A DNA stretch of 54,709 bases from a virus (IMGVR_UViG_3300021962_008580:1-54709), one strand, 5' to 3'; positions 6,523 to 53,920 are shown, counted from the first letter of the stretch. Notes: generated by a model from the letters alone, not told the origin. Numbers and translations: made by a program.

Positions 6523-7256
6523 TATATAATTGAAACTCCTCTTTGTCTTACAACTTTGCTCGCACATTCGTTTGCAAACTTGATAGACTGAATAATATCT
6601 TTACTTCTGCTATATTCTATAACAAGACCAGCCATGAACGAATCTCCGGCTCCAGATACATCTATGACATCCTGTTGCTCTACAGGATATCTGACCCCGT
6701 GATAATAGCAACCATCTTCTCCGCTTGTCTTGATGATTTTTTCTTCAAGATCTGGAGTTATGCTTGCCTCGGACCTGCTATATTCGTGATTATTGATTTT
6801 GATAAAAGTGACATTCTTTGCCCAAGGACCAAGAATTTTCTTTGTGTCCAAGAAAACAGAATTGTGATTTTTTGAAATGGTTTCTATGTCTTCTTCTGTA
6901 AGAAACCCTTTATCATAATCAGAAACAATAATGTGTTCATAATCATAATTCATGGAATCTATGTTTATGCGTTTGATTTCTTCGGCAGAATCCAATCTAA
7001 AAAACATATGATTGGTCGCCTTATGAATATATCTGGTTTTGGTTATATTGTACCAGTTTGGATTGGTTACTATATCACAATCGTCAACCATTGTCTTGAT
7101 GTTGCGATATACATTCTTAGCCATACCGGGATTGTCGTTTTGATCTATGATCTTTAGAACTGGTACTGGCTTATCTGGGCACATTCTGTTTGCGGAGCAG
7201 TATGCATGTACGTCTCTGCAACTATCACCGATTACTAATATTCTTTTTTTCATCAA
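6522..7256 (-). CDS. PfkB-family sugar kinase, HldA/RfaE domain I (heptose-7-phosphate kinase)-like
   Basis: ILVIGDSCRD, RMCPDKPVPV (compare RISPEAPVPV in HldE), VSDYDKG and DVSGAGDSF. Confidence 0.85.
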   Translation of the reverse strand: MMKKRILVIGDSCRDVHAYCSANRMCPDKPVPVLKIIDQNDNPGMAKNVYRNIKTMVDDCDIVTNPNWYNITKTRYIHKATNHMFFRLDSAEEIKRINIDSMNYDYEHIIVSDYDKGFLTEEDIETISKNHNSVFLDTKKILGPWAKNVTFIKINNHEYSRSEASITPDLEEKIIKTSGEDGCYYHGVRYPVEQQDVIDVSGAGDSFMAGLVIEYSRSKDIIQSIKFANECASKVVRQRGVSII

Positions 7257-8447: not shown

Positions 8448-9461
8448 TTAAATGTCTATCATTATTCTTCCACTTGAACCAGACTTCAACATTGAAACGG
8501 CAAGATTGATGTCTGACAAAGAATATCTATGAGTTACAAGGTGTTGAAGATTAATTTTATTGTTTTTATAAAGATTAATATATCTTGGGATATCAACGTC
8601 AGGATCAAATCCACCGGCTTGGGTTGTTCTGATGGACTGTCCGTTTGTGGAGAATAGTTTGCCTGGGTTGTTTATAGCCAAAGAAGAGCCAGGCTTTGGT
8701 TGTGCTACAAGAATGCATCTACCTTGTTCCGACATAGTCTCCAACAACTGTGAAAGAAGCTGTAGGATGCCTGTGGTATCTATGATACAATCAAATTTCA
8801 TCTTCTTGACAGTTTCTATATCTTCTTCCGAATGAAGGAAGGTTCCGCCATTCTTTTCGACCATAGACTTTTTATCTTTGTTGATATCCATGCCCCAGAC
8901 CAAAGCGTGAGAAAGATGGGAGGCGTAGATACAATTTAGACCAACTCCGCCGCAACCCAATACAAGAACTCTTTCACCAAACTTGATATTAGCATCTTTG
9001 TTTACTACGCTGAACCCAGTGGATATACCACAACCAAGAAGAGCAGCGAAATCGTTGCTGATATCTTGATCAATCTTTGTTATTCTGTTTTCTGATACAA
9101 CCGAGTATTCTGACAATGTGGTTATTTTACCACCAGACATACTTCTGCCATTCCAATTATATTGTGGGAAGTTAGCTTCAATACCAGATGCTTTTCTCCA
9201 ATGCAATACTACCTTGTCACCAACTTTGACTTTTGATACTCCTGGTCCAGTCTTTTCTACCAAACCACATCCTTCGTGACCGACAAGATGGGGCATAAAC
9301 TTCTCATTCCCCTTGAGCCCAGCAATTTCTTGTAGTTGTGCTCCACACAATCCACTTACAAGAACCTTTACAAGCACTTGCCCATATTCAAGATTGACTG
9401 GAAGATTGACTTCATCCACAACCAACGGTTCATTTTTCTTTACAAGTATTGCTGCTTTCAT
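8448..9461 (-). CDS. Zinc-dependent alcohol dehydrogenase (MDR family)
   Basis: GLCGAQ, GHEGCG, LLGCG and Rossmann GCGGVG motifs. Confidence 0.9.
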   Translation of the reverse strand: MKAAILVKKNEPLVVDEVNLPVNLEYGQVLVKVLVSGLCGAQLQEIAGLKGNEKFMPHLVGHEGCGLVEKTGPGVSKVKVGDKVVLHWRKASGIEANFPQYNWNGRSMSGGKITTLSEYSVVSENRITKIDQDISNDFAALLGCGISTGFSVVNKDANIKFGERVLVLGCGGVGLNCIYASHLSHALVWGMDINKDKKSMVEKNGGTFLHSEEDIETVKKMKFDCIIDTTGILQLLSQLLETMSEQGRCILVAQPKPGSSLAINNPGKLFSTNGQSIRTTQAGGFDPDVDIPRYINLYKNNKINLQHLVTHRYSLSDINLAVSMLKSGSSGRIMIDI

Positions 9462-10453
9462 CCTTTTTTCTTTCCGTATATAACGCCCTTGAGGTCACAC
9501 AAAGTATACCAAGATTCAAACGCTAAGTTCAAGCATTTGACATCAAATCCGGCTGCTATCAATTTATCAACTATGAATTGGGTTCTGTGATTTTCGTTAT
9601 GATGAAATTCGATCAAAACTTGGTCTATGTTCTTCAAATCCTCGACGGATAAGCTATTAAATATGTCATATTCATATCCTTCTATATCCAACTTCCAAAG
9701 ATTGATTTTTTCACACTTTGTTTTTTTAATCAAGCTTTTCAAAGATATGCATTCCACGGTCACCGGCCTAGCGTCGCCAACCATATTTTCGGTATCATAT
9801 TTTTTTTGATTATCTATCTGAAATGAATTTAGTGTGGTTTTATCCGTGAAATAAAATTGCTTCTGTCCATCTTGAGTGTCTAAAGCCACATTATATCTTT
9901 CAACTCTGGTGTCGAATGTTCTGTCTAAAATATAATATGATGGAGATGGCTCTAAACAAACAACTTTGCTTGCTTTTCTCTTTAAGCAATAGTCGGCAAA
10001 AGTTCCACAACTTGCTCCAACGTCAAATACAACATCGCCTTCTTGAACAATATTGTTCAAAAACGAATTATTGTAGAAATCGAGATATTGGATGTAAAAA
10101 CAGTCAGATACGTTTAGATCGCTTGAATCATCCGAGTAAAAATATTTTGGAGTAGGTCTATCAACAATTTTTATTTCAGAACTAAAAAGTTTTACTCCAT
10201 TTTCATACAAGGAAAAAATAAAACCTGTGAAGTCTGTGTTAAGTAATTTAACTCTGCTTGTTGGAGAAACAAAATAATTTACTCCGGCTGTAATTTCCAC
10301 ATCTTTCCAATAAAAGCATGTTAAATTGGAAGTTCTTTCTTTTAAAACAATGGTTACTTTTTTAAAAGATTTGGTTAAAACAAAGTTTAATTTGTTTTCA
10401 TCTTTTTCAAAGCTCCAAGATAAATTTATTGCTGTTTCGGTGGATTCACTCAT
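9458..10453 (-). CDS. FkbM-family SAM-dependent methyltransferase
   Basis: VVFDVGASCG, CLEPS, KLDIEGYE and IEFH motifs. Confidence 0.85.
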   Translation of the reverse strand: MSESTETAINLSWSFEKDENKLNFVLTKSFKKVTIVLKERTSNLTCFYWKDVEITAGVNYFVSPTSRVKLLNTDFTGFIFSLYENGVKLFSSEIKIVDRPTPKYFYSDDSSDLNVSDCFYIQYLDFYNNSFLNNIVQEGDVVFDVGASCGTFADYCLKRKASKVVCLEPSPSYYILDRTFDTRVERYNVALDTQDGQKQFYFTDKTTLNSFQIDNQKKYDTENMVGDARPVTVECISLKSLIKKTKCEKINLWKLDIEGYEYDIFNSLSVEDLKNIDQVLIEFHHNENHRTQFIVDKLIAAGFDVKCLNLAFESWYTLCDLKGVIYGKKKG

Positions 10454-12993
10454 TTGATGTTCCTAATTTCTATAGATGATGTAATATACTGACTCTTTGA
10501 TTGTATTAAGTCAAGAATTAATGATGCAATTTGTTGAGAATCCATAAGATCTGAATAGTTTAGTCTATTTTCCGTCATTTTTGTTTTCATGGCACCTACA
10601 TAAATATCCACCACCTTGATTTTTGAATTCTTCTGATTTATTGAAAGTGAAGAACCAAAACCAGAAAGTCCGAACTTTGATGCACAATATACAGATTCAT
10701 TATAGTTTGGTTGTTTTCCGGCCAACGAGTTTATATTGATTATCCAACCAGATTGATTGGTAAGAGTCAAATGTTTATAAAGATATTTGGAAAGAAGCAT
10801 AGGAGCTACAAGATTTACGTTTATGATTTCTTGTATTCTTTGATCTGAAACATCCATAATACCATCTCCACAATATATTCCAGCATTATTTATCAAACAG
10901 TTGATGTTGTTTTTGACAATGTATTCTTCCATTTTTTGAACACTGTTGATGTCAGAAAAATTACAAAATTCATATTTGTTGTTTTGGTTGTTGCGATTTG
11001 CTTGACCATAAAACTGAACGTTTCTGTTGGAACATTCTTTTTCAAGAGATTGGCCCAATCCACCCGATATTCCCGTCACCAATATTTTTGGAAAATTTTG
11101 TTTGATTGAAATGTTTGTATCTTCCACCAATCCATCTCGAACGTCTATATAAACCAAAACTTCGGTGTATTTATTCAAAAAGTCTGGGTTAAATAAATCC
11201 CACTTGATGTCTGTTCTAGCCGTAAAATCATAAACTTTGTAATTCTTGAATCGTCTCAGATAATTGTCTCTGAAGTTTGCGAATTTTTCTTTAAATCCAT
11301 TCGGACCAAGATGCCATTCACCAGCTATCTTTTTTACGTTCTTGGTTAACCAATCAAAATTCTCATCGGTGAAAATATCATACTCTCCTCCTTCACAATC
11401 GATCTTTAGAAAATCGATTTTATCTATGTTATTTTCTTTAATTAAGTCGGAGAACGTGATGGTGTTAAAATCTTCGGTTATTTTGAACGTCAATCCATTT
11501 TTAATAGATTGGCGTTTGTAAGATATTCCCACGTTCAATAACGTGTGTGGAGCACCTTTGAGTTTATTCTTGATGGTTTCTTGTCTTGAAGCTCCTGGTT
11601 CCAACGTCAATATTTTCTTAGGTTTTCTTTTTGAAGCAGCATAAGAGAACCAACCAAGAAATCCTCCTATATCAACGACTATATCGTCTTTTTCAACCTT
11701 GAAGAATTTTTCATATACGGTACCTTCTTTTTTAAAGAACTCTTCGTATATGATATATTTTTCTTTGGCACTTATGTCTTTTTCTTCTTCGACATATTCA
11801 AGTTCTTTTCTATAATCCAAATCAATGACATCGTTTATTTTTTTGATGACCATCTCCGGAGTTATTTCCTTGGTACATTCAAAATTTTTGTTTCTCGGGC
11901 AAAAATCCCATTTTGATTTGTCAAATGGTATTTCGTTGGCACAACCGTGGCAAACGTTTTTATTCATTCCAACTCTAAATGGACTATAAAATTCAGTCCA
12001 GACATCGCTGATACCAGAAATCATTATTACAGGAGTACCAACCGACCAAGACAACCAAGATAAACCAGAAGTCAATCCTATGAAGAATTCAGCCCCTGCG
12101 ACTTGGTTTATTCTTTCTTCTATAGGAAAATCTCCGGTTTTATCAATTGCTCCTTCTGGTATAGAGTTTTGATAGTTTTCCGTTCCAAAAACTTTGTACT
12201 TGTCTATACACCAAACCTCATAGCCAAGACCGTTGAGATATTTGATTACTTCATCCCATCCGCCCTTTCTGTTCCAGTATTTGTATTGAGCGGTGCTTTG
12301 TGTAGCGATACATACATACTTTTTTCCATCGTTGTATGTTTTATTAAATTTTAATTTTGGCTTTATTTCCATTTCTCCAAAACCAAGAATGCTTGGAGCG
12401 ATGGAAGATAAAGACAACTGTTTCGGATCGTGGAAAATTTTTCCTTGCCAATCTTCGTAATAATATCCCAATCTATAAGATGCATAGTAAGAAAGATCAG
12501 AGTCGGTTGATGATAAAAACTTTATATTTGGGTAATTTTCTTTGAATATTTTATTCCAAGTGGGATCAAATACCACACAACTTAATTCACAGTTGTGTTT
12601 TTTCTGAAAGGCGTCAATCGCTCCAATGTATGCAAGCAAATCTCCCATAGAGTTTGTGTCGCATGTAATCTTTACTCTCTTTCCTTTTAGATTGAATATT
12701 GTCTCCTTTACTATTTCGTTTCCGCATTTGACAACAATTTTCCAATTGAAAAAATATCTCATGCTTGGAGAAGACCACATTCCATTCTTTATTTTTGTGG
12801 AATATATGTTTTTTCCATTCGAGTTATCAATAAAATCTATGGAATATTCTTTTTCCACATTTCCTACTATCTCGACTTTGGCTCCTTCTATGAAAGAAAT
12901 TTTAATTTCATTTTTATTTTCATCCACCGATTTATCATATGGACGCCAAACCGGCTTGGTTTCGTTGTATATTCTTGTTAAAGTTTGTTTCAT
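10450..12993 (-). CDS. Trifunctional fusion: TibC/Aah-like heptosyltransferase + FkbM methyltransferase + SDR oxidoreductase
   Basis: Glycosyltransferase: SMGD, QSTAQYKYWN, IGLTSGLSW, CHGC...CPRNKNFECT. Methyltransferase: VVDIGGFLG, KIDCEGGE. SDR: TGISGGLG, NNAG, YCASK. Confidence 0.85.
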   Translation of the reverse strand: MKQTLTRIYNETKPVWRPYDKSVDENKNEIKISFIEGAKVEIVGNVEKEYSIDFIDNSNGKNIYSTKIKNGMWSSPSMRYFFNWKIVVKCGNEIVKETIFNLKGKRVKITCDTNSMGDLLAYIGAIDAFQKKHNCELSCVVFDPTWNKIFKENYPNIKFLSSTDSDLSYYASYRLGYYYEDWQGKIFHDPKQLSLSSIAPSILGFGEMEIKPKLKFNKTYNDGKKYVCIATQSTAQYKYWNRKGGWDEVIKYLNGLGYEVWCIDKYKVFGTENYQNSIPEGAIDKTGDFPIEERINQVAGAEFFIGLTSGLSWLSWSVGTPVIMISGISDVWTEFYSPFRVGMNKNVCHGCANEIPFDKSKWDFCPRNKNFECTKEITPEMVIKKINDVIDLDYRKELEYVEEEKDISAKEKYIIYEEFFKKEGTVYEKFFKVEKDDIVVDIGGFLGWFSYAASKRKPKKILTLEPGASRQETIKNKLKGAPHTLLNVGISYKRQSIKNGLTFKITEDFNTITFSDLIKENNIDKIDFLKIDCEGGEYDIFTDENFDWLTKNVKKIAGEWHLGPNGFKEKFANFRDNYLRRFKNYKVYDFTARTDIKWDLFNPDFLNKYTEVLVYIDVRDGLVEDTNISIKQNFPKILVTGISGGLGQSLEKECSNRNVQFYGQANRNNQNNKYEFCNFSDINSVQKMEEYIVKNNINCLINNAGIYCGDGIMDVSDQRIQEIINVNLVAPMLLSKYLYKHLTLTNQSGWIININSLAGKQPNYNESVYCASKFGLSGFGSSLSINQKNSKIKVVDIYVGAMKTKMTENRLNYSDLMDSQQIASLILDLIQSKSQYITSSIEIRNIK

Positions 12994-15119
12994 TTGATAT
13001 TTAAAAGTTTTTTGATTAGTTTAATATTCTCCGTTGGATTATTTGTGACCAAATAATTAACTTCATCATACTTGTCATACATACCTTGATATGTGTGAAG
13101 ATTGTGTATTAGAGACGGCAATCCCCAAGAAATGGATTCTTTTATTACAATTGGAGATGTTTCCATGATAGAAGTAAATACCATGAGATCCGCGGCTTGA
13201 TAAAACTTTTCAACGTCGTTTCTTTCTCCCCATATTAAACAGTTTGGGGGAAGGTTTGCCATTAACGGTTTCCAATAATCCTCAAAGTTCCCAGCCTGAT
13301 TTCCTATGAAATGAAACTTTATTTTTTCATTGATAAGAGACCTTGCGTATTCTATCAATTCACCCTGATTTTTTCCTTTGGTGAAAAGTCCAACGTTTAT
13401 AACGTGTTTATATCCATCCAAAAAGTTTAATTCTTCTTTATATTTCTTTTTGTCTGGTTTCATTTTTACGACCGGATATTCTACTATTTCGGCCGGAACA
13501 CCATGTTCCTTGAACATATCAACCTGTTGTTGACATACAAATAGGTATTTGTCTGGGAAAAACTTTTTGTCTTTTGGATTAAAATATATTCCGTGGGAAG
13601 TTTCAAATATAGTATATCTTCTGTTTTCTGAGTATATCTTTTTTGCTATGTCCTTAGAAATATATTCTTCCGAGAATTCCTCCAGATGAATTACGTCTGG
13701 ATCAATTTCTTCAATTATGTCCAACAGCTTCTCTTTAGGTAAATCCTGCAATCTATAAAATTTGTCTTTTAATAGATCGACTATTCTATTTCTTTGAACC
13801 ACATAAAAGGTTGCCACTTGGTCATATTCTACACAATATACATCAAAATCGTCCATCAAAAGTCTAATCTTTTTCTCAAGATATTGCGGCATTCCTCCAG
13901 TCGATAGATGGGGAGTAATAAACAAAATTCTCTTTTTTCTTGGTTTGTTATACTTCTCCAAAAAGTTTTTAATCTTTTCGTGTCCAATTTTTCCGACGTT
14001 TTCCCATTCAAATTTTTCTCGAATTTCTTTGGAGTCAATAAGGGCTTTTTCTTTGTATTGTTTGTAGTTTGTATAAACATCTCTGAATACTTCCGACAAG
14101 TGATTCCAATCTGGCTCATAATAATTTCCAGAGTTTTCTACTGTATTTGGGATTTCTCCTGCTATTTTGACAGGGTGCCCCTTTCCACTTGCAAATTCCA
14201 ACTGAGCCGAACAATCCGAATATATGGAAGGAGTTCCACATGCCATCGCCTCAATCAGAGGAAGGTTCCAACCTTCGCCTCTTGAACATGACACAAACAC
14301 ATGTCCTTTTCTCAAGAATTTTATATAGTCTTCTCTAGAAGGGAAGTGAACAACCTTAACTCTTGGATCTTCAAAACCAAAGGCCTTTAATCTTTCTTCG
14401 GTTGATTTGTATTTGTCATCTGGAAATGGATTGTCCACGGAAAGAATAAAATCCACTGGCTCATCTTTTCCAAAAGTTTTAAGAAATGTTTCTATTATTT
14501 CTTGTGTAGCTTTTCTATGGCTCCATCTACCAAATATTATAAATTTGAATCTACCATCAGCGTAATGTTCATCAAATGATACATCTTTTGGATAAAAAGT
14601 TTTAGAATCTACTCCGGCTGGAACAACCTGTATTTTGTCTGCTTTATATCCTTGAGCAATCATGCATTCTTTTTGCCAAGTGCTGGCTGTCCAAAATTCG
14701 TCAAATGTTTTTGCCTGCTCAAAAAACGCAGGTGGAAGAAGGGTCGATTCCCAAACAGTATAAGCTATCTTCGGACGGCTGTATGTTTCAAAAAAATAGT
14801 GGTGAGGAACAATGTCAGCCACAATCTGAACATCCATAGGTTCGGTACTTGGTCTTTTTCGATATATCGGAAAATTTACCAGCTTTCCACCATCTCCCCA
14901 CAACGACTGGACATTAATAAGCCTCTTATCTAAATCGGTAAGATATTTTTCTTCCGTGTGAGGATCTTCGCTCATTCCCTTCCAATTTTTTCCGACGGTA
15001 AAATTTCTAATTTTAACATCGCAATTTTTTGAAAGAGATCTGAAAAAATCTCTAAAGTGATTGTTTATTCCGGTATTACCTATATACGAAGTGTGTCCAA
15101 ATACTTTTATTTCATTCAT
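12990..15119 (-). CDS. Tandem two-domain GT-B (GT4-like) glycosyltransferase
   Basis: First domain: GRWSHRK and SRGEGWNLPLIEAMACG. Second domain: ILFITPHLSTGG, VGLFTKGKNQ and ETSPIVIKESISWG. Confidence 0.9.
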   Translation of the reverse strand: MNEIKVFGHTSYIGNTGINNHFRDFFRSLSKNCDVKIRNFTVGKNWKGMSEDPHTEEKYLTDLDKRLINVQSLWGDGGKLVNFPIYRKRPSTEPMDVQIVADIVPHHYFFETYSRPKIAYTVWESTLLPPAFFEQAKTFDEFWTASTWQKECMIAQGYKADKIQVVPAGVDSKTFYPKDVSFDEHYADGRFKFIIFGRWSHRKATQEIIETFLKTFGKDEPVDFILSVDNPFPDDKYKSTEERLKAFGFEDPRVKVVHFPSREDYIKFLRKGHVFVSCSRGEGWNLPLIEAMACGTPSIYSDCSAQLEFASGKGHPVKIAGEIPNTVENSGNYYEPDWNHLSEVFRDVYTNYKQYKEKALIDSKEIREKFEWENVGKIGHEKIKNFLEKYNKPRKKRILFITPHLSTGGMPQYLEKKIRLLMDDFDVYCVEYDQVATFYVVQRNRIVDLLKDKFYRLQDLPKEKLLDIIEEIDPDVIHLEEFSEEYISKDIAKKIYSENRRYTIFETSHGIYFNPKDKKFFPDKYLFVCQQQVDMFKEHGVPAEIVEYPVVKMKPDKKKYKEELNFLDGYKHVINVGLFTKGKNQGELIEYARSLINEKIKFHFIGNQAGNFEDYWKPLMANLPPNCLIWGERNDVEKFYQAADLMVFTSIMETSPIVIKESISWGLPSLIHNLHTYQGMYDKYDEVNYLVTNNPTENIKLIKKLLNIK

Positions 15120-18716: not shown

Positions 18717-18751
18717 ATTATTATAAATATATATGACAGTACATAATCGTG

Positions 18752-21700
18752 TCATTTTTTACTCAAAGTTTCAAGTTGATTTTCAAGTTTCTCGATACGA
18801 TCTTGCTGAGCTTTGATTGCTTCAATAAGTAGAGGAACAAGCTTCTCGTAACGTACTGTCATGTACTTTTCATCGATTGGTGCTGGTGCAACAATTTCTG
18901 GAAGAATTGCGTTGACTTCTTGGGCAGATACACCGACCTCTCGTTTCTTTTTATATCCCAAGGAGACCGCGATGTCATTTGCTTCAAAATAAAACCCAGA
19001 CAGCGCTTTAACTTTCTCAATTGGATTTTCAATCGGACCAATCTTTGTCTTCAAACGTTCGTCGGAATAATAAGCGGTTATGTTGTCTGTGGCACGAATT
19101 TCGCCGGTGGTTCCGGATGGGGAAGTCCCAACGCCCAGCGAATTTGTTATACGTGATGATCCACTTACAACAAATGAACCTGTAATTATTGTGTCTCCAT
19201 TAACATCCAATAATGAATTTGGATCTAGTTTTCCCACACCTATTCTACCAGAAGTTTCAAACAAAACTGAACTGTTTATTACATTTGTGGCTGAAGAAAA
19301 CTTGGCTATATATCCAGAGGTTCCAGAGTTTGCAACGGATGTTCCAGAAGACCCGCTGGTTCCAGAAGAACCGTTTGTGCCCGCTCCTCCATTTACTCCA
19401 CTCGTCCCACTTGTTCCGGATGCTCCACTTGACCCGCTTGTGCCGGAAGATCCAGACGTACCGTTTGTTCCAGAAGATCCGCTACTTCCGGAAGTTCCAC
19501 TTGTTCCACTTAGACCAGAAGTTCCACTGGTTCCAGATGCTCCGCTTGATCCGGATGTACCGGACGAACCACTAGTACCGGAAGATCCGTTTGTTCCACT
19601 TGTGCCAGAGGTTCCACTGCTACCACTTGTTCCACTCGCTCCAGAAGAACCAGACGTTCCAGATGTACCACTGCTTCCGCTTGTGCCAGAAGTACCGCTT
19701 GATCCGCTTAATCCAGACGTACCGCTTGTTCCAGACGCTCCACTCGTGCCAGATGTGCCAGAGCTTCCAGATGTACCGCTTGTACCGGATGTTCCACTAG
19801 AACCACTTGTACCAGAAGAACCGGAAGTACCGGACGATCCGCTTGTTCCACTTACTCCAGATGTACCACTTGTACCAGATGCGCCGCTTGTTCCGGAGGT
19901 ACCACTGCTTCCACTGGTTCCACTGGTTCCGTTTGTGCCTGAGGTACCATTTGTTCCAGAAGTTCCATTGGTACCAGATGTACCATTTGTGCCGGACGTT
20001 CCATTGGTGCCCGAAGTTCCGTTTGTTCCACTGGACCCACTAGTTCCAGAAGACCCGCTTGTACCATTTGTTCCACTTGATCCGCTGGTGCCAGACGAGC
20101 CACTAGTACCATTAGTACCGCTTGTTCCGTTGGTGCCACTCGAACCATTTGTTCCAGAAGATCCGCTTGTTCCTGATGTTCCACTAGAACCGCTCGTTCC
20201 ATTTGTGCCGCTGGTACCGTTGGTTCCACTGGTTCCATTTGTTCCAGATGACCCGTTGGTGCCACTGGTGCCGTTGGTTCCTGACGTTCCATTGGTTCCA
20301 CTGGTTCCATTTGTTCCAGATGATCCGTTTGTACCGCTTGTGCCATTTGTTCCCGAAGTTCCGTTTGCTCCACTTGATCCAGACGTTCCTGAAGAACCGC
20401 TGGTTCCGTTGGTACCAGAAGACCCGCTTGTTCCAGAGGATCCGCTTGTACCACTTGTTCCGTTTGTTCCAGATGTTCCGCTGGTACCGGAGTTTCCAGA
20501 AGAGCCAGATGTACCACTGGTTCCAGAATTTCCAGAGGTACCCGATGTTCCATTTGTTCCCGAAGATCCAGATGTGCCACTTGACCCGTTAGACCCACTT
20601 GTTCCACTCGATCCGCTAGAACCATTGGTACCAGACGTTCCACTCGTACCACTATTGCCGCTTGTTCCCGATGTACCGCTTGAACCACTAGTTCCCGATG
20701 CTCCAGATGACCCGCTTGTGCCGCTTGTTCCAGAAGTTCCCGACGATCCGCTTGTACCGTTCGTACCAGAAGTTCCATTTGTTCCCGAAGTTCCATTTGT
20801 ACCGCTTGTTCCATTTGTCCCAGAAGTTCCATTTGTTCCAGATGTTCCACTGGTGCCGGAGTTTCCAGAAGAACCAGACGTTCCGCTAGAACCGCTGCTT
20901 CCCGAAGTTCCGCTGGTACCTCTGGTTCCAGATGTGCCGCTTGTACCAGATGTTCCACTTATTCCACTGGTGCCGCTCGTTCCACCGCCCAAAGAATTTA
21001 ATGCGTAGCTGGCCGTAATTGCATAAGACGCCGTACCAAATAAAGATCCAGTGATACCGGCTGATACTCCAAGAGAACCAGTTATCACAGCACTTCCGCT
21101 GACATCAAATACAGCGCTAGGATTTGTTTTTCTTATACCAATTCTACCTCCACCGGTTAAAACCATCATATCTTCGTAATCGGTTTCTCCCCCTCCACGA
21201 TTTACGTAGAATTTCAATTGACCACCCCAATCACCAGGATTCAATCCAGTACTGGTCGTATCATATAAACCAGAAATTCCGGCATATCTCCAATTTGGTG
21301 TAGCGGGAATTGCTACAGACAATGGATCATAACCACTGAATGTAATTTTTCCTCCTGTTCCATTGGCTGTGTTATAATTGTGAAGATTCAACATGTCAGC
21401 AACGGAATTGCTTGAAGTATACAAAGTTTCCATTACTCCAGGGCGTGTAATTGTGTCTCCAATCGTTATATATTTTCCATCATCAAATATGGCACTTCCA
21501 GCTATATTATTTGAACCAGAATTATAATATCCCACAGCCAAACTATTTTCTGCGACGTTGTTTGTAGCAATATTGTATCTGGAGCTAGATTCCATGTATA
21601 CATGTTTCGTTCCACCTCTAAACACATTATTTGATACTACGTTGGCAGATCCGGTATATCCTCCAATATAAATTGATTTTCCTGTTCCGGCATTAAACAA

Positions 21701-24700
21701 TGTGTTACTTGTTATCGTACTTTCATACATGTTCAAACCATTAATCAACGTTGCGGTTGTATCTGCTATAATAAGATTATTGCTAATATAACAAGATTCA
21801 ACGTTTTTTAGAACTATTGAATCCCCGCTGTTTCTAGCATCAATATGGCTGTTTAATATAGAAACAAGAGCAACACGCCCAGCAATATTTCTTCCAGCCC
21901 AGTCGGTTCCAGCAATTCCGGTAAATGCGGCGTTGCCATCGACATAGATCCCACACGTCACAGGAACAAACAATAACTGAGAAAAGGTCATTCCTTCCGT
22001 GTTCATTCCCGCCGCGGTATAATCTACGGTATTTATTTTTATACCCGTGTTCCAATGATTGAATTGACTTTGGTTTACAGAAGAATTTACGCAAAGTCTT
22101 TTAAATTCAAGTCCAGTACCAACCCAACCACTTCCAGTCGGGTTTCCATGAAAGAAACATCTATCTATTCTTGTATTCCAAGCCGATTCTACGGTTACAG
22201 CTTTTAACCAATAATTTGAATTATCAAATGATAAAACTTGAACACCCGATAAATCAACGGAAACATTTTCGTGTTGAGATGTACTAGTTGTTCCATATGT
22301 TATGTCAATTGCAGATCCCGAAATTGCCGTGGCCGCGTGAAATCCAAGATCTCTTATAGCCACTTGATAAACGGAATCGGACGTAGTACCATTATCCATA
22401 TTGAATTTTATGGCCGTGTCATTTCCCGTCTGTTTTATTATAGATACATTGGCACTATTTCCAAACAAAGCTATATCACAACTTGGATTACTTGTTAATT
22501 GTAATGCGCCCGTAATTACATATACTCCATCAGGAAAGTAAACCGATCCTGTTTTTACAGCCTGAGAAGCAGAAATTGCGGTCTGAATAGCCGTGGTGTC
22601 ATTTGTAACACCATTCCCCGTTGCCCCATAGTCTTTAACATTAAAATAGGAAGTATCTGCTGATTTTAATGCATATGAAGCTGTTCCAAATAAAGATCCT
22701 GTTATTCCGTTTAAAACATCCAAAGATCCAGATATTTTCACACTTCCCGTCATCATAAAACTGCCACTGATGTCAAGTGTGGCTTGTGGAGATGTTTTAT
22801 TTATTCCCACATATGTGCCAGCATCAAATATTATAGATTCTGTAGAAGTTTGATTTGCCGCATATTTTACAACATAGTTTAATGATCCTGATATAGCCAA
22901 GGAGGTGCCGCTTGTGCCAGAAGTTCCGCTTGCACCATTTGTTCCAGATGATCCATTTGTTCCACTTGTTCCATTAGTACCACTCGAACCATTTGTTCCC
23001 GAGGATCCACTTGTTCCAGATGAACCAGATGTACCATTAGCTCCACTACTTCCAGATGTACCAGAGCTCCCAGATGTACCGCTTGTGCCAGAAGAACCAC
23101 TTTGTCCAGAAGTTCCACTTGTTCCTGAAGAACCAGACGTACCGCTTGTACCAGATGTACCACTTTGTCCAGATGTACCGCTTGTTCCCGATCCTCCATT
23201 TACTCCACTTGATCCACTGGTTCCAGAAGAACCGCTTGTTCCAGATGTTCCACTCGAACCAGAAGAACCACTTGTGCCAGAACTTCCCGATAGTCCGCTG
23301 GTTCCAGAAGACCCGCTTGTTCCAGATGTTCCGCTAGACCCAGAAGTTCCATTGGTACCGCTGGTTCCACTCGTACCAGATGCACCACTCGTTCCACTTG
23401 AACCAGACGTTCCATTTACTCCGCTTGTACCGCTTGTACCGCTTAAACCGCTTGTTCCAGATGAACCGGATGTTCCACTTGTTCCAGAAGTGCCAGACAA
23501 TCCATCCGTTCCAGATGTGCCATTTGTACCGCTTGACCCAGATGTTCCGTTTGTTCCAGATGTTCCGTTTGTTCCCGATGTGCCATTTGTTCCAGAAGTT
23601 CCGTTAGTTCCTGATGTACCGTTTGTACCACTTGAGCCAGATGTTCCAGAAGATCCATTTGTTCCACTCGTTCCAGAAGTGCCGCTACTTCCAGAGGTTC
23701 CACTGAAGCCACTGGTTCCAGAAGATCCAGAAGTTCCACTAGAACCATTTGTTCCCGATGTTCCATCAGTTCCACTGCTACCAGAAGTGCCGTTAGAACC
23801 ATTAGATCCAGAAGTACCACTTGTTCCGCTAGAACCATTGGTACCAGACGTTCCACTCGTACCACTATTTCCGCTTGTTCCTGATGTTCCAGATGAACCG
23901 CTTGCGCCGCTTGTTCCACTTGTGCCAGAAGTTCCCGACGATCCGCTTGTACCGTTCGTACCAGAAGTTCCATTCGTTCCGCTGGTACCATTAGTTCCTG
24001 ACGTGCCATTTGTTCCTGAAGTACCATTTGTGCCACTGGTACCATTGGTTCCGGATGTTCCGTTTGTCCCAGATGTTCCATTCGTTCCGCTGGTACCGTT
24101 GGTTCCAGATGTTCCATTAGATCCGTCAATCCCAGAAGTTCCTGATGTTCCACTCGAACCATTACTACCACTTATTCCGCTTGTACCGTTTGTTCCCGAA
24201 GTTCCAGATGTTCCACTAGACCCGTTAATACCAGATGTACCACTTGTACCCGAAGTTCCGTTTGTACCAGAAGAACCAGAAGTTCCACTCGAACCATTTG
24301 TTCCACTGGCGCCGCTTGTTCCAGAAGTTCCGTCTACTCCTGATGTACCACTGGTTCCAGACGATCCAGAAGTACCAGAACTGCCACTTGTACCCGACGA
24401 ACCATTTGTTCCAGAACTACCACTGGTTCCTGAGGATCCGCTACTTCCATTTGTACCCGACGTTCCAGAAGTTCCGCTGGTTCCAGATGTAGACGTATAT
24501 GCCGCCGAGGCAACTCCTATATTTTTTACGTTTACTATAATTGAAGGAGCCGCGGGAGCATTATATGGATCCGGTGGATTTGTTCTGGCCGGAATTGCTG
24601 TTATTTGAGTATACTGTGTTGATGCCGCCATCATCAACTCAATATAATCACCTTGTAACGCATCTACGATGATGCTTACAAACGGAAGCTGCAATACAGA

Positions 24701-27700
24701 GTTCGATACCAGTTTAAAATATGAGTCGCTTCTTGGAATATCTGTTCCGTTCTTTCTTACCCACCAGTGAACAGTTGAGTCCGTTCCTTGAGTTTTTTCT
24801 ACTTGTGGAGAAAAAGAAAATTCGTATATTCCAGAATGCCCAAAAGTTATTTTTGAATTATCCACCACCGATATTCCATTTTCTATTTCAACGGCGTTAT
24901 AAGTAATGGACATAGTAACGTCTGCGCCAGGCACAACCTGATCTTGGTCGCTACTATATTGAGCATAGTAGTTTACCACTTCTACACCAGATGTACCGCT
25001 GGTTCCCGAAGTACCATTTATACCACTGGTTCCGCTAGTTCCGGAACTTCCATTTGTACCACTGGTTCCGTTTGTGCCTGATGCCCCCGACACTCCAGAT
25101 GAACCAGACGTTCCGCTACTTCCGCTTGTACCACTACTACCACTTGTGCCAGAACTTCCATTTGTACCACTGGTTCCGTTTGTACCAGAGATTCCACTAG
25201 ATCCAGATGAACCATTGGTTCCTGAAGTCCCACTTGTACCGCTTGTTCCACTTTCACCGCTTGTGCCAGAAGTTCCACTATTGCCTGAGCTTCCTGAAGT
25301 TCCGTTTGTTCCCGATGAACCAGAAGACCCACTGGTTCCAGAAGAGCCGTTTGTTCCACTACTGCCATTTGACCCAGAACTTCCACTTGTACCGTTTGCT
25401 CCGGACGTTCCAGATGAGCCTGAACTTCCATCTATTCCGCTTGTGCCTGAACTACCACTGGTGCCATCAATTCCACTGGTTCCTGATGATCCGTTTGTAC
25501 CACTCGAACCATTGGTACCAGAAGTTCCACTTGTTCCGGATGAGCCGGAGCTTCCACCAGTTCCGCTTGTGCCCGAACTGCCACTAGTACCTCCAGTACC
25601 ACTGGTTCCGCTGGTTCCGCTGGTTCCTGATGAACCGTTTGTGCCACTTGTGCCATTGGTACCGCTTGTTCCATTTGTCCCAGAACTTCCACTACTTCCA
25701 GACGATCCACTGGTACCACTACTTCCAGATGATCCGCTAGTTCCACTGGTACCAGATGAACCACTAGTTCCATGTGATCCAGAAGTTCCTGATGAACCAT
25801 TTGTTCCTGATGAACCACTAGTTCCAGATGTTCCTCTGGTGCCAGAAGTTCCCGAAGAACCGCTGGTTCCAGAGGTTCCTCCACCACCTCCGCCACTTGT
25901 TCCGGAGGTTCCAGAGGTTCCAGAAGATCCACCCGCTCCTCCGCCCCCTCCTGTTTGAATACTCAGTCCATCAACATCGACAAAAAATTTCTTGTTTAAT
26001 GGAAGATATGTGTGGTTGTATTTAAAATTGTATGAGTTTTCTCCGTAAGCCAAATTTCCATTTGAGTCATATAGTTCAACATCTATTTCAAATAACTCAT
26101 TTTTTACCGTGTTTGGAATAGGAACATTTGCTGAAAAAACGTCTGGAGAATATCCAACAGAATGATATGGTTTTATTGAAACTTGAGAAAGATTCCATCC
26201 ACCGGCAACAGGAACAATCTTTATTGTTCCAAATTGTGTATTTGGTACAAAGAAAGAGCTGGTATAAAGTTCATTAGCACCATAATTGTAAGAGTTATCA
26301 ATATAACCTATTTGTGTTATTTCTTCTCCGCTCAAGAAATAAACATACAATTGAGAAGAATCGGTATTTGCGGATTGCCCTCTCACCCTCATAGAAAACT
26401 GATACAAACTATTTTCTATTAGTTTTATCGGGTTACTATTATGTACACTACCAGCTAGCAAGTTTTCTTGAGAACTTCCATATGCTGAAAGTAATGAAGG
26501 AACATCGTATGAGGCCGTAGGATATGGAAGTTTACTGTTGAACGCCTCGGTATCTCCATACCAATACGAATTGGATAATAACGTTGGAGAAACATATGCG
26601 GAAGTTCTGGACGGTTCAGCTACATTATCCTTGAATATAACATAATCGGTTTTAGAAGTGTTGGAAGAGTGTGATATAGAAACCCCATCTATCAACACAT
26701 CGTTTGATTGATTGAAAGTAAATGATCCATTTTTTAACCAATACTGGTCGGTATACGCCTGAGAATAAAATTCGCCTGGTTTTCCATGAAACGCGTTATC
26801 AAAATCTGTGGTCTTGATGCACTCTTGAGGTTCTATTCTTCCTTCCACCAGTAATGTTTTACTTTGGGGAGTGTTTAAGCTTCTTCCATATATCTTGTAT
26901 GAAGAAACTTGACCGCAAAGAGCACGTAAATTTCTTACTTCTATATGAGCGTAAGCTTTTACCGCCGCGACACTGGCTGAAACATAAGATCTTGGTAAAG
27001 TAAACGGTATATCTTTGTATATTATCTCATAATTTCCAGAACTGATACTCAGAACATAAAAATTTTTCTTGAAATAACTATTTTGTTTATTTGGATCATT
27101 TTCCGAAACATAATTTCGAATGTTTGTGAGATCATTTTTTGCGTATTGAGAATTTTGATTTGTTCTACCAATCAAATCCGAAACCGTTGAAAATGGAATG
27201 GATATAAGTAATGCATTCTCACTAACTATACGTTTAATTTTGGCTATGAAATCTGTATCAAGAGGTCCGTTGTATTCTATTTCATTGTTTCCTTGATCCG
27301 AATACAAAAATTTTGTAACATTTATATCTTTTACTCGAATATTTTCTCCTTCCATCGCAGAAGAAAATGCGGTTCCACCTTGTCTGTAAATTTGATATAT
27401 TACTTCATCTCCTTGAGGATCGTAATCTCCGTTGCTGTTCTTTTTTGGAGTTACCGCGTTGGAATAAAAAGAACCTGAAGCAACAGAAAACGGTTGTGAT
27501 GGATATTCTGGAACTTTATGAAGAACGGGAGTAACGGTCAGTGTTGGGTAATCAAAAAATCTTACTTGAGATTTTGTTGAAAACTTGGTGTCAATTGCGA
27601 CGTTTCTTCTCCAGATAATAGTACCAGTTGGAAGAGGGGAGCTTGCTGGAGCTTGTAATAATGGTCCGTTCTGATTGTCGGAGACCTTGTATGGAACGTT

Positions 27701-28042
27701 TTGATAATATTCAAAACTTCCTGTATATGTTCCGAGATCAACTCCCTGTGCCGAAACCTCTATATACCCAAAACCAGGTTCAACATTTTCTGGAATTTTT
27801 GTATAATACGTGGTTCCAAGAGTTGTTGACTCTCCATATTTGGCATCCTTAGCTTTGGATGTCTGAGTAAAAAGTTCTACATTTTTTGATGTATAAACCT
27901 TTACCGAAATGCTTGAATTTGGCAGTATTCTTTTGGAAGGATTTACTACAAAAGAATTTTTGCCCGCACCAAAAACACCATCGAAATCTGTTATAAAAAA
28001 GAAGTCGTTGGATTGTGGATCTGTGTCTATAATATCTGCCAT
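18752..28042 (-). CDS. Giant tail fibre/spike with Gly-X-Y repeats, C1q/BclA-like domain, pectate-lyase-like beta-helix and C-terminal S74 intramolecular chaperone
   Basis: 3096 aa with three GTS/GSS/GTN blocks. FNVKDYGATGNGVTNDTTAIQTAI marks a beta-helix N-cap; YSDERLK...VRYEKLVPLLIEAIK marks the S74 domain. Confidence 0.85.
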   Translation of the reverse strand: MADIIDTDPQSNDFFFITDFDGVFGAGKNSFVVNPSKRILPNSSISVKVYTSKNVELFTQTSKAKDAKYGESTTLGTTYYTKIPENVEPGFGYIEVSAQGVDLGTYTGSFEYYQNVPYKVSDNQNGPLLQAPASSPLPTGTIIWRRNVAIDTKFSTKSQVRFFDYPTLTVTPVLHKVPEYPSQPFSVASGSFYSNAVTPKKNSNGDYDPQGDEVIYQIYRQGGTAFSSAMEGENIRVKDINVTKFLYSDQGNNEIEYNGPLDTDFIAKIKRIVSENALLISIPFSTVSDLIGRTNQNSQYAKNDLTNIRNYVSENDPNKQNSYFKKNFYVLSISSGNYEIIYKDIPFTLPRSYVSASVAAVKAYAHIEVRNLRALCGQVSSYKIYGRSLNTPQSKTLLVEGRIEPQECIKTTDFDNAFHGKPGEFYSQAYTDQYWLKNGSFTFNQSNDVLIDGVSISHSSNTSKTDYVIFKDNVAEPSRTSAYVSPTLLSNSYWYGDTEAFNSKLPYPTASYDVPSLLSAYGSSQENLLAGSVHNSNPIKLIENSLYQFSMRVRGQSANTDSSQLYVYFLSGEEITQIGYIDNSYNYGANELYTSSFFVPNTQFGTIKIVPVAGGWNLSQVSIKPYHSVGYSPDVFSANVPIPNTVKNELFEIDVELYDSNGNLAYGENSYNFKYNHTYLPLNKKFFVDVDGLSIQTGGGGGAGGSSGTSGTSGTSGGGGGGTSGTSGSSGTSGTRGTSGTSGSSGTNGSSGTSGSHGTSGSSGTSGTSGSSGSSGTSGSSGSSGSSGTNGTSGTNGTSGTNGSSGTSGTSGTSGTGGTSGSSGTSGTGGSSGSSGTSGTSGTNGSSGTNGSSGTSGIDGTSGSSGTSGIDGSSGSSGTSGANGTSGSSGSNGSSGTNGSSGTSGSSGSSGTNGTSGSSGNSGTSGTSGESGTSGTSGTSGTNGSSGSSGISGTNGTSGTNGSSGTSGSSGTSGSSGTSGSSGVSGASGTNGTSGTNGSSGTSGTSGINGTSGTSGTSGVEVVNYYAQYSSDQDQVVPGADVTMSITYNAVEIENGISVVDNSKITFGHSGIYEFSFSPQVEKTQGTDSTVHWWVRKNGTDIPRSDSYFKLVSNSVLQLPFVSIIVDALQGDYIELMMAASTQYTQITAIPARTNPPDPYNAPAAPSIIVNVKNIGVASAAYTSTSGTSGTSGTSGTNGSSGSSGTSGSSGTNGSSGTSGSSGTSGSSGTSGTSGVDGTSGTSGASGTNGSSGTSGSSGTNGTSGTSGTSGINGSSGTSGTSGTNGTSGISGSNGSSGTSGTSGIDGSNGTSGTNGTSGTNGTSGTNGTSGTNGTSGTNGTSGTNGTSGTNGTSGTNGTSGTNGTSGSSGTSGTSGTSGASGSSGTSGTSGNSGTSGTSGTNGSSGTSGTSGSNGSNGTSGSSGTDGTSGTNGSSGTSGSSGTSGFSGTSGSSGTSGTSGTNGSSGTSGSSGTNGTSGTNGTSGTNGTSGTNGTSGTNGTSGSSGTNGTSGTDGLSGTSGTSGTSGSSGTSGLSGTSGTSGVNGTSGSSGTSGASGTSGTSGTNGTSGSSGTSGTSGSSGTSGLSGSSGTSGSSGSSGTSGTSGSSGTSGSSGVNGGSGTSGTSGQSGTSGTSGTSGSSGTSGTSGQSGSSGTSGTSGSSGTSGSSGANGTSGSSGTSGSSGTNGSSGTNGTSGTNGSSGTNGASGTSGTSGTSLAISGSLNYVVKYAANQTSTESIIFDAGTYVGINKTSPQATLDISGSFMMTGSVKISGSLDVLNGITGSLFGTASYALKSADTSYFNVKDYGATGNGVTNDTTAIQTAISASQAVKTGSVYFPDGVYVITGALQLTSNPSCDIALFGNSANVSIIKQTGNDTAIKFNMDNGTTSDSVYQVAIRDLGFHAATAISGSAIDITYGTTSTSQHENVSVDLSGVQVLSFDNSNYWLKAVTVESAWNTRIDRCFFHGNPTGSGWVGTGLEFKRLCVNSSVNQSQFNHWNTGIKINTVDYTAAGMNTEGMTFSQLLFVPVTCGIYVDGNAAFTGIAGTDWAGRNIAGRVALVSILNSHIDARNSGDSIVLKNVESCYISNNLIIADTTATLINGLNMYESTITSNTLFNAGTGKSIYIGGYTGSANVVSNNVFRGGTKHVYMESSSRYNIATNNVAENSLAVGYYNSGSNNIAGSAIFDDGKYITIGDTITRPGVMETLYTSSNSVADMLNLHNYNTANGTGGKITFSGYDPLSVAIPATPNWRYAGISGLYDTTSTGLNPGDWGGQLKFYVNRGGGETDYEDMMVLTGGGRIGIRKTNPSAVFDVSGSAVITGSLGVSAGITGSLFGTASYAITASYALNSLGGGTSGTSGISGTSGTSGTSGTRGTSGTSGSSGSSGTSGSSGNSGTSGTSGTNGTSGTNGTSGTNGTSGTNGTSGTNGTSGSSGTSGTSGTSGSSGASGTSGSSGTSGTSGNSGTSGTSGTNGSSGSSGTSGSNGSSGTSGSSGTNGTSGTSGNSGTSGTSGSSGNSGTSGTSGTNGTSGTSGSSGTSGSSGTNGTSGSSGTSGSSGANGTSGTNGTSGTNGSSGTNGTSGTNGTSGTNGTSGTNGSSGTNGTSGTNGTSGTNGTSGSSGTSGTSGSSGTNGSSGTNGTSGTNGTSGSSGTSGSSGTNGTSGSSGTSGSSGTNGTSGTNGTSGTNGTSGTNGTSGTNGTSGTNGTSGTSGSSGTSGTSGASGTSGTSGVSGTSGSSGTSGSSGTSGSSGTSGTSGTSGSSGTSGTSGASGTSGTSGLSGSSGTSGTSGSSGTSGTSGSSGASGTSGSSGTSGTSGTNGSSGTSGSSGTSGSSGASGTSGTSGLSGTSGTSGSSGSSGTNGTSGSSGTSGSSGASGTSGTSGVNGGAGTNGSSGTSGSSGTSVANSGTSGYIAKFSSATNVINSSVLFETSGRIGVGKLDPNSLLDVNGDTIITGSFVVSGSSRITNSLGVGTSPSGTTGEIRATDNITAYYSDERLKTKIGPIENPIEKVKALSGFYFEANDIAVSLGYKKKREVGVSAQEVNAILPEIVAPAPIDEKYMTVRYEKLVPLLIEAIKAQQDRIEKLENQLETLSKK
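19310..20990 (-). repeat. Gly-(Thr/Ser)-(Ser/Asn) triplet block 3 of the fibre
   Basis: Degenerate 9-nt periodic coding repeat; boundaries approximate. Confidence 0.9.
22905..24490 (-). repeat. Gly-(Thr/Ser)-(Ser/Asn) triplet block 2 of the fibre
   Basis: Degenerate 9-nt periodic coding repeat; boundaries approximate. Confidence 0.9.
24985..25955 (-). repeat. Gly-(Thr/Ser)-(Ser/Asn) triplet block 1 of the fibre
   Basis: Degenerate 9-nt periodic coding repeat beginning with poly-Gly; boundaries approximate. Confidence 0.9.
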
Positions 28043-53055: not shown

Positions 53056-53238
53056 TTATTCTTCCAAAACCACCGTGTGGTCATTAAAATTTTCGGAATC
53101 ATAACCAAGTTCTTCGTTTATGATTTCTAGAGCTTCTTCTACTTGAATCCATTTTCTTTCATCTAATGCGTTCGCCAATATCTCTCTGATTTCTTCGAGG
53201 ACATCTGGATCGATAGTATCTTTGTCGTGATTTTTCAT
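53056..53238 (-). CDS. Small acidic hypothetical protein
   Basis: Likely start is ATG 53238, an ATGA overlap with the deformylase stop. Confidence 0.6.
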   Translation of the reverse strand: MKNHDKDTIDPDVLEEIREILANALDERKWIQVEEALEIINEELGYDSENFNDHTVVLEE

Positions 53239-53849: not shown

Positions 53850-53920
53850 ATGTGAATATATTCGCAATATTCACACATGTATATACACAAATCGTTGAAT
53901 GTCAATATATAATAAATATA

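Follow-up and report, generated by a model that had tools for sequence, protein, structure and literature searches.

Introduction

Collagen stability is today explained by imino acids, hydroxylation, charge pairs or hydration networks. This report concerns a gene of the viral contig IMGVR_UViG_3300021962_008580 (positions 1-54709; this whole stretch of 54,709 nucleotides is referred to as the window), which encodes a collagen-like protein, most likely a tail fibre, with long Gly-X-Y repeats that contain no proline, together with a group of sugar-related genes downstream of it that includes two glycosyltransferases of the TibC/Aah type. The fibre belongs to a class of Pro-free collagen-like phage fibres that is widespread yet essentially undescribed; this copy stands out by the fusion of its collagen-like part to an N-terminal module read as a virion anchor, by its layout of three rods with a beta-helix and a BclA-like knob, and by a sugar-gene island that is unusually large and contains two TibC-type enzymes.

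BclA and F-BclA, glycoproteins of the Bacillus exosporium and of endospore appendages, are composed of an anchor, a Gly-X-Y region and a C-terminal C1q/TNF-like knob, as is part of the window protein, and BclA structures were the best fold matches of the phage knob. The repeats of BclA contain Pro. According to passages of PMC8968730, BclA carries glycosylation that is believed to aid its hydration network, and the residues most often found at X and Y of bacterial collagens are Pro and Thr, respectively. Unlike BclA, from which its knob differs in all but 11-16% of residues, the phage fibre has no Pro, three rods, a beta-helix and a Peptidase_S74 domain, and is encoded near TibC-type enzymes; the repeats of BclA are also far shorter.

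The E. coli prophage collagens EPclA and EPclB resemble the window protein in being phage fibres with a Gly-X-Y domain between trimerisation domains. These and other bacteriophage collagens are described in passages of PMC3368898 as trimeric, triple-helical and stable when unmodified, with Pro in about half of the X positions, 22% charged residues and short domains, and with no glycosylation seen in the prophage proteins treated there. The window fibre, unlike them, has no Pro, 0.7% charged residues in its repeats and 466 triplets. A putative tail fibre of the marine T4-like cyanophage P-SSM2 (orf028, reported in 2005) is described in PMC1079782 as 49% Gly-X-Y, with frequent Pro, Ser or Thr at the X and Y positions; compared by that description, it differs from the window fibre in being an annotation only, in having Pro and in that no link to a glycosyltransferase is drawn in the passages concerned.

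TibC and Aah of E. coli, which act on TibA and AIDA-I, respectively, belong to TIGR04414 (structures 4rap and 4rb4), a family whose members are described as soluble, cytoplasmic and adding heptose to Ser residues in repetitive proteins. The heptose is taken from ADP-heptose, and the substrates known are autotransporter passengers, beta-helical and built of 19-residue repeats. The phage enzymes are of the same family by curated score, alignment to TibC and conserved Cys residues and differ in being fused to, or lying beside, FkbM, short-chain dehydrogenase (SDR) and GT4 genes, and in that the repeat nearby is Gly-X-Y. The cuticle collagen of vent worms, which has Pro in X and Thr in Y, is a collagen with sugar on Thr, and an initial annotation of the window had drawn this comparison. 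Stabilisation by glycosylated Thr is mentioned as a known mechanism in a passage of PMC3368898. In mycobacteriophages, phage-encoded transferases glycosylate virion proteins, as cited in PMC12619734, the targets named in the relevant passage being the C-termini of capsid and tail-tube proteins rather than collagen repeats.

Results and Discussion

A Pro-free collagen-like repeat in a 3096-residue fibre protein

The fibre ORF (open reading frame; P0001) was located at window positions 18752-28042 on the minus strand. Its repeat runs were located by a regular-expression scan for Gly at each third residue. The scan returned 466 triplets in register in four runs, three of them main blocks, with Gly at 466/466 third positions; the exact triplet count is uncertain because the contig is a short-read assembly and independent contigs break inside the repeat. 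The domain order is an all-beta N-terminal anchor, rod 1, a BclA/C1q-like knob, rod 2, a pectate-lyase-type beta-helix, rod 3 and a Peptidase_S74 chaperone, and the features of the ORF are as follows.

25949..28042, minus strand, N-terminal anchor module, all-beta and multi-domain (residues 1-698)
25877..25948, minus strand, Gly-rich lead-in including GGGGG (residues 699-722, 8 triplets)
24980..25870, minus strand, collagen-like rod 1 (residues 725-1021, 99 triplets)
24485..24979, minus strand, C1q/TNF-like jelly-roll knob (residues 1022-1186, 165 residues)
22901..24484, minus strand, collagen-like rod 2 (residues 1187-1714, 176 triplets, uninterrupted)
20984..22900, minus strand, non-repeat region with a right-handed beta-helix of glycanase/epimerase type (residues 1715-2353, 639 residues; Pfam match at about 22001-22648)
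19337..20983, minus strand, collagen-like rod 3 (residues 2354-2902, 183 triplets, uninterrupted)
18755..19336, minus strand, C-terminal domain with Peptidase_S74 intramolecular chaperone (after rod 3)

The 1398 repeat residues were found to comprise 481 Ser, 477 Gly, 298 Thr, 92 Asn and 1 His, so that Ser and Thr together account for 779 (56%), while Pro is absent and Asp, Glu, Lys and Arg together number 10 (0.7%). The most frequent triplets are GTS (220), GSS (111) and GTN (72), X being chiefly Thr or Ser and Y chiefly Ser or Asn. The initial annotation had described Gly-X-Y blocks of this kind, Pro-free and nearly uncharged, amounting to about 470 triplets within 19310-25955, and composition, count and run coordinates all agree with that description. 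The composition that usually stabilises collagen, with imino acids and/or charged pairs in X and Y, was not found in the repeats.

The ORF scored 556.8 bits against the Pfam Collagen family (PF01391; cut-off 27.2), and the long uninterrupted Gly-X-Y register of this family is present in single blocks of 99, 176 and 183 triplets. Outside the repeats the composition is ordinary, with 67 Pro and with Gly at 144 of 1698 residues (8.5%), and because of this low Gly content 176 or 183 in-phase Gly in succession cannot be put down to chance.

At the DNA level the 466 triplets are encoded by 184 different 9-mers, and all four Gly codons are used (GGA 258, GGT 137, GGC 58 and GGG 24). Tandem Repeats Finder returned degenerate arrays only (59-87% matches), with the exception of one 26-base array at 100%, and the DNA periods were mixed (9, 18, 27, 36, 45, 54, 63, 72 and 108). 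The number of 9-mers, the use of four Gly codons and the degeneracy of the arrays show that the repeats are not a product of recent slippage, and that the Gly periodicity is therefore maintained at the level of the protein. Autocorrelation of the X and Y residues gave a two-triplet alternation and no consistent longer period.

If extended at 0.286 nm per residue, the three rods would measure about 92, 151 and 157 nm, and the 1398 repeat residues would sum to 400 nm, a span that exceeds the T4 long tail fibre several-fold. The initial annotation had pictured a tether of roughly 400 nm; the arithmetic holds, and the single rod gives way to three rods split by the C1q-like knob and the 639-residue beta-helix region.

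Domains flanking the rods

PHROG tail-fibre families matched the whole fibre protein with E-values down to 2.4e-159, and a tail fibre is the most likely identity of the product. The knob was modelled with AlphaFold2 with a mean predicted local distance difference test (pLDDT) value of 88.4, and the model has a predicted ten-strand jelly-roll fold. A Foldseek search of the PDB gave as best matches BclA (3twi, 3tyj and 2z5w), ExsFA (7r1m), BxpB (8d02) and C1q domains, at E-values of 5e-8 to 5e-6 and probability 1.00, and TNF-family ligands were matched also. The template modelling (TM) scores for the BclA, ExsFA, BxpB, C1q and TNF-family chains were 0.56-0.69 by query and 0.59-0.80 by target, at a sequence identity of 8-16% (11-16% for BclA). 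The knob belongs to no described sequence family in Pfam (E up to 1) or PHROG (E up to 0.01), and its 43 sequence relatives are metagenomic proteins without names, mostly within collagen-free fibres.

The beta-helix region matched the Pfam families Pect-lyase_RHGA_epim (E 1.3e-16) and NosD (5.5e-5) and tail-spike families of PHROG, and among PDB sequences a beta-1,3-glucanase (5m5z, 1.7e-10), alginate epimerases and iota-carrageenase. The C-terminus of the fibre, at residues 2993-3051, matched Peptidase_S74 (PF13884) with E 6.6e-11 and 42.8 bits (cut-off 22); this domain also matched 40 PHROG tail-fibre families and PDB entry 6f45, a long tail fibre distal subunit (1.9e-4). The motif SDERLK begins at residue 2993 (Ser codon 19064-19066), precisely where the S74 profile match begins. 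Its Ser and Lys are presumably the S74 catalytic pair known from endosialidases, and by its sequence the motif is the expected self-cleavage site of the chaperone, which would leave a piece of 104 residues.

A domain of trimeric type thus lies C-terminal to every rod: the knob after rod 1, the beta-helix after rod 2 and the S74 tip after rod 3. Trimeric states for the three domains are suggested by analogy with the families to which they belong, and a node after each rod is what one would predict if such nodes, placed on the C-terminal side, aligned three chains and started the helix that precedes them.

The N-terminal module and its relatives

The N-terminal module, a separate and conserved unit, is read as a virion anchor. 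Its AlphaFold2 model (pLDDT 78.8) is a predicted string of beta-sandwich domains. No Pfam or PHROG family was found for the module or for the nine relatives scanned, tblastn against GenBank phages was without match, and all matches in a protein atlas scored below 0.9. Against the PDB, Foldseek gave local likeness to carbohydrate-binding modules and immunoglobulin-like domains only (whole-chain TM at most 0.18), and among viral models the only whole-length matches were uncharacterised proteins of uncultured Caudovirales.

In IMG/VR viral contigs, 14 homologues of the module were identified at 48-59% identity, all of them stand-alone ORFs of 692-745 amino acids that end at the point where the repeat of the window starts. 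Among 166 representatives of the family, collagen repeats were found in 0 of the 150 best. The in-frame fusion of the anchor to a collagen fibre in the window is unusual. What follows downstream of the homologues is either the terminase directly, a different glycosyltransferase island, or a fibre gene that is separate and encodes at least 2424 amino acids. In two loci (L015 and L018) a separate giant fibre gene begins about a dozen bases after the anchor gene, the one in L018 being the gene of at least 2424 amino acids, which runs off the locus. In seven loci (L015-L020 and L022, at locus positions 10001 to about 12235) the anchor ends with about 15-25 consecutive Gly followed by 14-15 residues.

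A sugar island with two TibC/Aah-type enzymes

Genes for a 977- and a 213-amino-acid protein separate the fibre gene from an island of sugar-related genes, which lies downstream on the strand of the fibre gene and is followed by the terminase. Its members are listed below.

12990..15119, minus strand, 709-amino-acid protein with two GT4-type (Glycos_transf_1) glycosyltransferase domains
10450..12993, minus strand, 847-amino-acid fusion of a TibC/Aah-type protein O-heptosyltransferase, an FkbM methyltransferase and an SDR (TIGR04414, Pfam)
9458..10453, minus strand, FkbM-family methyltransferase of 331 amino acids (Pfam/NCBIfam scans)
8448-9461, minus strand, Zn alcohol dehydrogenase (ADH)
7253-8446, minus strand, thiamine pyrophosphate (TPP) enzyme, E1-alpha/beta fused or transketolase-like
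6522-7256, minus strand, PfkB kinase resembling the heptose-7-phosphate kinase domain of HldE (103.7 bits, below the cut-off of 345)
5641..6567, minus strand, second, shorter TibC/Aah-type O-heptosyltransferase of 308 amino acids (TIGR04414)

Against TIGR04414, an NCBIfam equivalog with a cut-off of 200 bits, the 847-amino-acid fusion scored 318.8 bits and the 308-amino-acid enzyme 202.8 bits; the latter barely exceeds the cut-off and lacks the first 85 profile positions, and matched a profile of 28 family sequences with E 4.8e-105. Residues 28-387 of the fusion aligned with residues 22-384 of the TibC structure 4rap (E 1.4e-62). In an alignment of the 28 family members C348, C351, C365 and C373 are invariant, and we take these to be the four conserved Cys that bind iron in the TibC family. 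Judged by family, both window enzymes are predicted to transfer sugar to Ser/Thr of protein. The 34 window ORFs that were covered, in parts, by PHROGs, Pfam and NCBIfam scans yielded no autotransporter substrate; the repetitive Ser-rich protein near the enzymes is the collagen-like fibre.

Co-occurrence of the enzyme and Ser/Thr-type collagens

A search of viral contigs with a single protein, the TibC-like domain, gave no match, and the enzyme search was made with the profile of 28 sequences. The family proved common in viral contigs (at least 586 confirmed stretches) and rare in GenBank phages (4 of 50,697 records), three of these four records also containing Gly-Thr/Ser-Ser collagen ORFs. 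The Ser/Thr/Asn repeat was itself widespread in viral contigs (at least 669 pattern stretches), with ORFs of up to 3624 amino acids and 962 triplets. Collagen-like ORFs that are Pro-free and longer still than that of the window were seen in L106, L120, L143 and L159, up to this maximum; some are GTD- or GLS-rich, so that the class includes acidic and Leu-bearing variants.

Proximity of the two elements was counted from both sides. When the enzyme served to select the best 80 viral loci, 23 of these had, within 10 kb, an ORF in which 8 or more Gly-X-Y triplets follow one another; in 21 of the 23 it was of the Pro-poor Ser/Thr/Asn type (the exceptions being L039 and L065), nearly all were on the strand of the enzyme and many were truncated by the end of the locus. 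In 75 viral loci chosen by the repeat, dereplicated to 61 clusters, the enzyme (E <1e-30) was present in 21 loci, equal to 16 clusters. As a control, 75 loci with Pro/Gln-type collagen were seeded from L065, of which 74 (38 clusters) remained once the contig of the seed had been dropped, and the enzyme was present in one locus, equal to one cluster (Fisher P =0.002, odds ratio 13 for 16/61 against 1/38).

Homologues of the GT4 and FkbM enzymes followed the same trend (19/61 against 3/38 clusters and 9/61 against 0/38, respectively), while no enrichment in the repeat clusters over the control clusters was observed for terminase (3 against 4), the S74 tip (5 against 7), the C1q-like knob (5 against 4) or SbcCD (1 against 1). 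The PfkB, TPP, ADH and SDR genes of the island were found in neither set (0/61 repeat clusters); they do not travel with the repeat and were ruled out as part of a recurrent pairing.

The cultured Microcystis phage Mel-JY01 has the enzyme within a 1234-amino-acid open frame annotated as FkbM, and a GTS/GSS ORF a few kb upstream. Record LR756501 (735 kb) contains the enzyme and collagens, including a 3488-amino-acid open frame with Pro-free GTS repeats, and in relative G001 the island lies beside a collagen-free anchor gene with a 3409-amino-acid open frame of GSS/GTS repeats about 25 kb off. Neither enzyme nor collagen was found in Flavobacterium phage immuto. In bacterial genomes a short Gly-X-Y ORF was present in 8 of 80 enzyme loci, seven of the eight being mainly Ser/Thr-rich. 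Six of the seven, on contigs labelled Binatia, Methylococcus, Burkholderiaceae, Gammaproteobacteria, Methylococcales and Bordetella (L308, L317, L319, L331, L332 and L346, respectively), are Gly-Thr/Ser-Ser ORFs of 11-29 triplets at about 160 bases or less from TibC-type genes. The literature search returned no description of a phage TibC-type enzyme or of its pairing with collagen repeats, nor of a jumbo-phage collagen with a glycosyltransferase, nor any work on Mel-JY01.

Proposed fibre and alternative explanations

It is proposed that the all-beta N-terminal module would attach a homotrimeric fibre to the particle, in which the Pro-free Gly-(Thr/Ser)-(Ser/Asn) segments would form triple-helical rods of the lengths given above. 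The knob, the beta-helix and the S74 tip would hold the three chains in register and seed the folding of the rod before them, the beta-helix would probably also bind or cut host surface polysaccharide, and the S74 chaperone would cleave itself at Ser2993. In the cytoplasm, the TibC/Aah-type transferases of the phage would O-glycosylate Ser/Thr of the rods, the GT4 and FkbM enzymes would extend or methylate the glycan, and the resulting sugar coat may add to the stability, stiffness or protection of the rod. We consider it likely that the product is a segmented virion fibre with collagen-type rods, its trimeric state and triple helix being suggested by the repeat register and the flanking domains. 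That the fibre is O-glycosylated by the TibC-type enzymes is favoured with some reserve, the modification, its sugar and its role being suggested by enzyme family and gene context, and the chances that both statements hold together appear evenly balanced. The initial annotation had gone further in supposing that the repeat may need glycosylation to fold. Involvement of glycosylation gains support from the two nearby enzymes and from the enrichment in viral contigs; a need of it for folding gains nothing from this context, and we regard it as doubtful that dense TibC-type O-glycosylation is what lets a collagen helix without Pro or charge fold and stay stiff.

Several observations weigh against the proposed fibre. 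In peptides, Ser, Thr and Asn perform poorly as formers of a triple helix. According to a passage of PMC13138384, Pro-free stretches of at least three triplets are in the minority in animal collagens and are tied to a looser 10/3 helix. The fold searches of the N-terminal module, in the PDB and among viral models, gave no position in the virion. The TibC-type enzymes are not adjacent to the fibre gene, lying 5.8 and 12.2 kb downstream. In 45 of the 61 repeat clusters no TibC-type enzyme was found within the locus DNA examined, and conversely the huge-phage record LR756504 has the enzyme and no collagen match. The control set against which the enrichment of the enzyme was measured goes back to one Pro-rich protein, and its phylogenetic range may be narrow. 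In relatives L013, L014 and L021 the enzyme island lies beside a collagen-free anchor gene, from which it follows that the island need not serve the gene adjoining it.

Some of these same observations would suit an ordinary, unglycosylated collagen-type trimer, held together by its length and its three trimeric nodes, with the island serving host envelope glycans, other virion proteins or DNA: two genes separate the island from the fibre gene, TibC-type islands occur in relatives beside a collagen-free anchor gene, most repeat clusters are without the enzyme in the DNA examined, and recombinant prophage collagens fold without glycosylation (as described in passages of PMC3368898). The collagens known from such sources to fold unmodified are however rich in Pro and charge, and the present repeats have neither; the enzyme is by family a protein O-glycosyltransferase, and its enrichment is specific to Ser/Thr collagens and absent for the control genes, so that an unmodified trimer appears unlikely. 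A different possibility is that no triple helix forms at all, and that the repeats serve as a flexible and extended spacer, mucin-like and heavily glycosylated, or form an assembly of polyglycine-II type, as the lack of Pro, the near-absence of charge and the 56% Ser/Thr would allow. A flexible chain, however, would not need Gly at 466/466 third positions kept through synonymous change; the same strict register reaches 962 triplets in other phages, and a trimeric-type domain follows every rod. The polyglycine-II bundle, which the initial annotation had offered as an alternative structure, found little support, since the blocks are uninterrupted and their two-triplet alternation is accompanied by no long-range period that would mark the turns of a bundle. 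Taken together, a rod without a triple helix is quite unlikely.

Mis-joining of short reads in repetitive DNA might also account for the lengths of the repeats or for the in-frame anchor-fibre fusion; this possibility is compatible with the other readings. The window is a metagenomic fragment estimated to be 25% complete, independent contigs in two runs end within the repeat at about 25797-25813, the words of the repeat are very deep from other organisms, and the 14 close anchor homologues and the 150 best representatives are all collagen-free. Against this, contigs of two public-read runs, which may be the source samples, span the junction at 25949 without mismatch (25797-26600; records 6 and 15), the whole ORF is open over 9291 bases, and ORFs of the same type and of like or greater length occur on many other contigs. 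An artefact of assembly is thus considered very unlikely. Two further runs (X3 and X4) contain parts of the stretch only and do not bridge the junction; the runs containing the sequence are labelled marine, estuary and freshwater metagenomes. Within rod 1, at 25769-25850, the summed word depth of public contigs was seen to rise from about 10 to about 30,000 in two metagenomes, and the repeat-type DNA words there are therefore common to very many other contigs.

Should the proposed segmented fibre be confirmed, its significance would lie in several directions. A natural rod of 176-183 consecutive triplets without imino acids, hydroxylation or charge pairs is outside the range that has been studied, and if it folds it would test the rules of collagen stability and offer a simple, polar and repetitive scaffold for biomaterials. 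If the TibC-type enzymes modify the rods, glycosylation of phage virions would gain a new form, an enzyme family so far known only from bacterial adhesins would gain a new class of substrate, and the modification would be a likely determinant of how large aquatic phages reach their hosts and stay protected en route. If sugar in addition stabilises the rods, collagen rods of 0.4 micrometre, and of up to about 0.8 micrometre in relatives, would be built in this way, and viral and bacterial Gly-Thr/Ser-Ser collagens, rather than autotransporters, would be a main natural substrate class of these enzymes; a sugar-coated fibre, if confirmed, would be an undescribed way of building a collagen-type rod. 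Mel-JY01, as a cultured phage with both parts, makes the pairing directly testable.

Other genes of the window

The window encodes a portal protein, a large terminase, baseplate wedge proteins, a fused SbcD-SbcC, a primase and a peptide deformylase; the ORFs selected are all but one on one strand, and no tRNA genes were found in the window. This gene content identifies the window, as judged from sequence, as part of a large T4-like aquatic myovirus. The portal shares 52-54% identity with its counterparts in Microcystis phage Mel-JY01 and Flavobacterium phage immuto.

The gene next downstream of the fibre gene (15822-18755, minus strand) encodes the 977-amino-acid protein mentioned above and overlaps the fibre stop codon by 4 bases. 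This protein is without a match in Pfam, PHROG or NCBIfam, and in it we take an N-terminal HxGH-like motif to be that of a nucleotidyltransferase and a KxDG motif to be ligase-like. It had been considered as a member of the sugar pathway on account of the HxGH-like motif, and this was dropped, since genes placed similarly upstream of the terminase in Mel-JY01 and in immuto, a phage without the enzyme and the collagen, are, compared by position, annotated as cytidylyltransferase-like and nicotinamide mononucleotide (NMN) adenylyltransferase.

Directly upstream of the fibre gene, at 28076-31384 (minus strand), an SbcD-like nuclease and an SbcC-like ATPase are fused in a protein of 1102 amino acids; the fusion is kept in relatives as an ORF of 1068-1102 amino acids directly upstream of the anchor gene. 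A 1052-amino-acid protein at 33267-36425 (minus strand) has FG-GAP repeats and a weak dockerin-like stretch, with relatives of 1048-1078 amino acids, and is possibly another surface or fibre protein. At 47291-49789 (minus strand) an 832-amino-acid protein was found whose first approximately 430 residues are Gly/Ala-rich with glycine-zipper-like repeats, the sole Pfam match being a weak one to Gly-zipper; these repeats account for the second GC-rich patch of the window. The peptide deformylase is encoded at 53235-53867 (minus strand) and matched phrog_2890 with E 5.2e-26.

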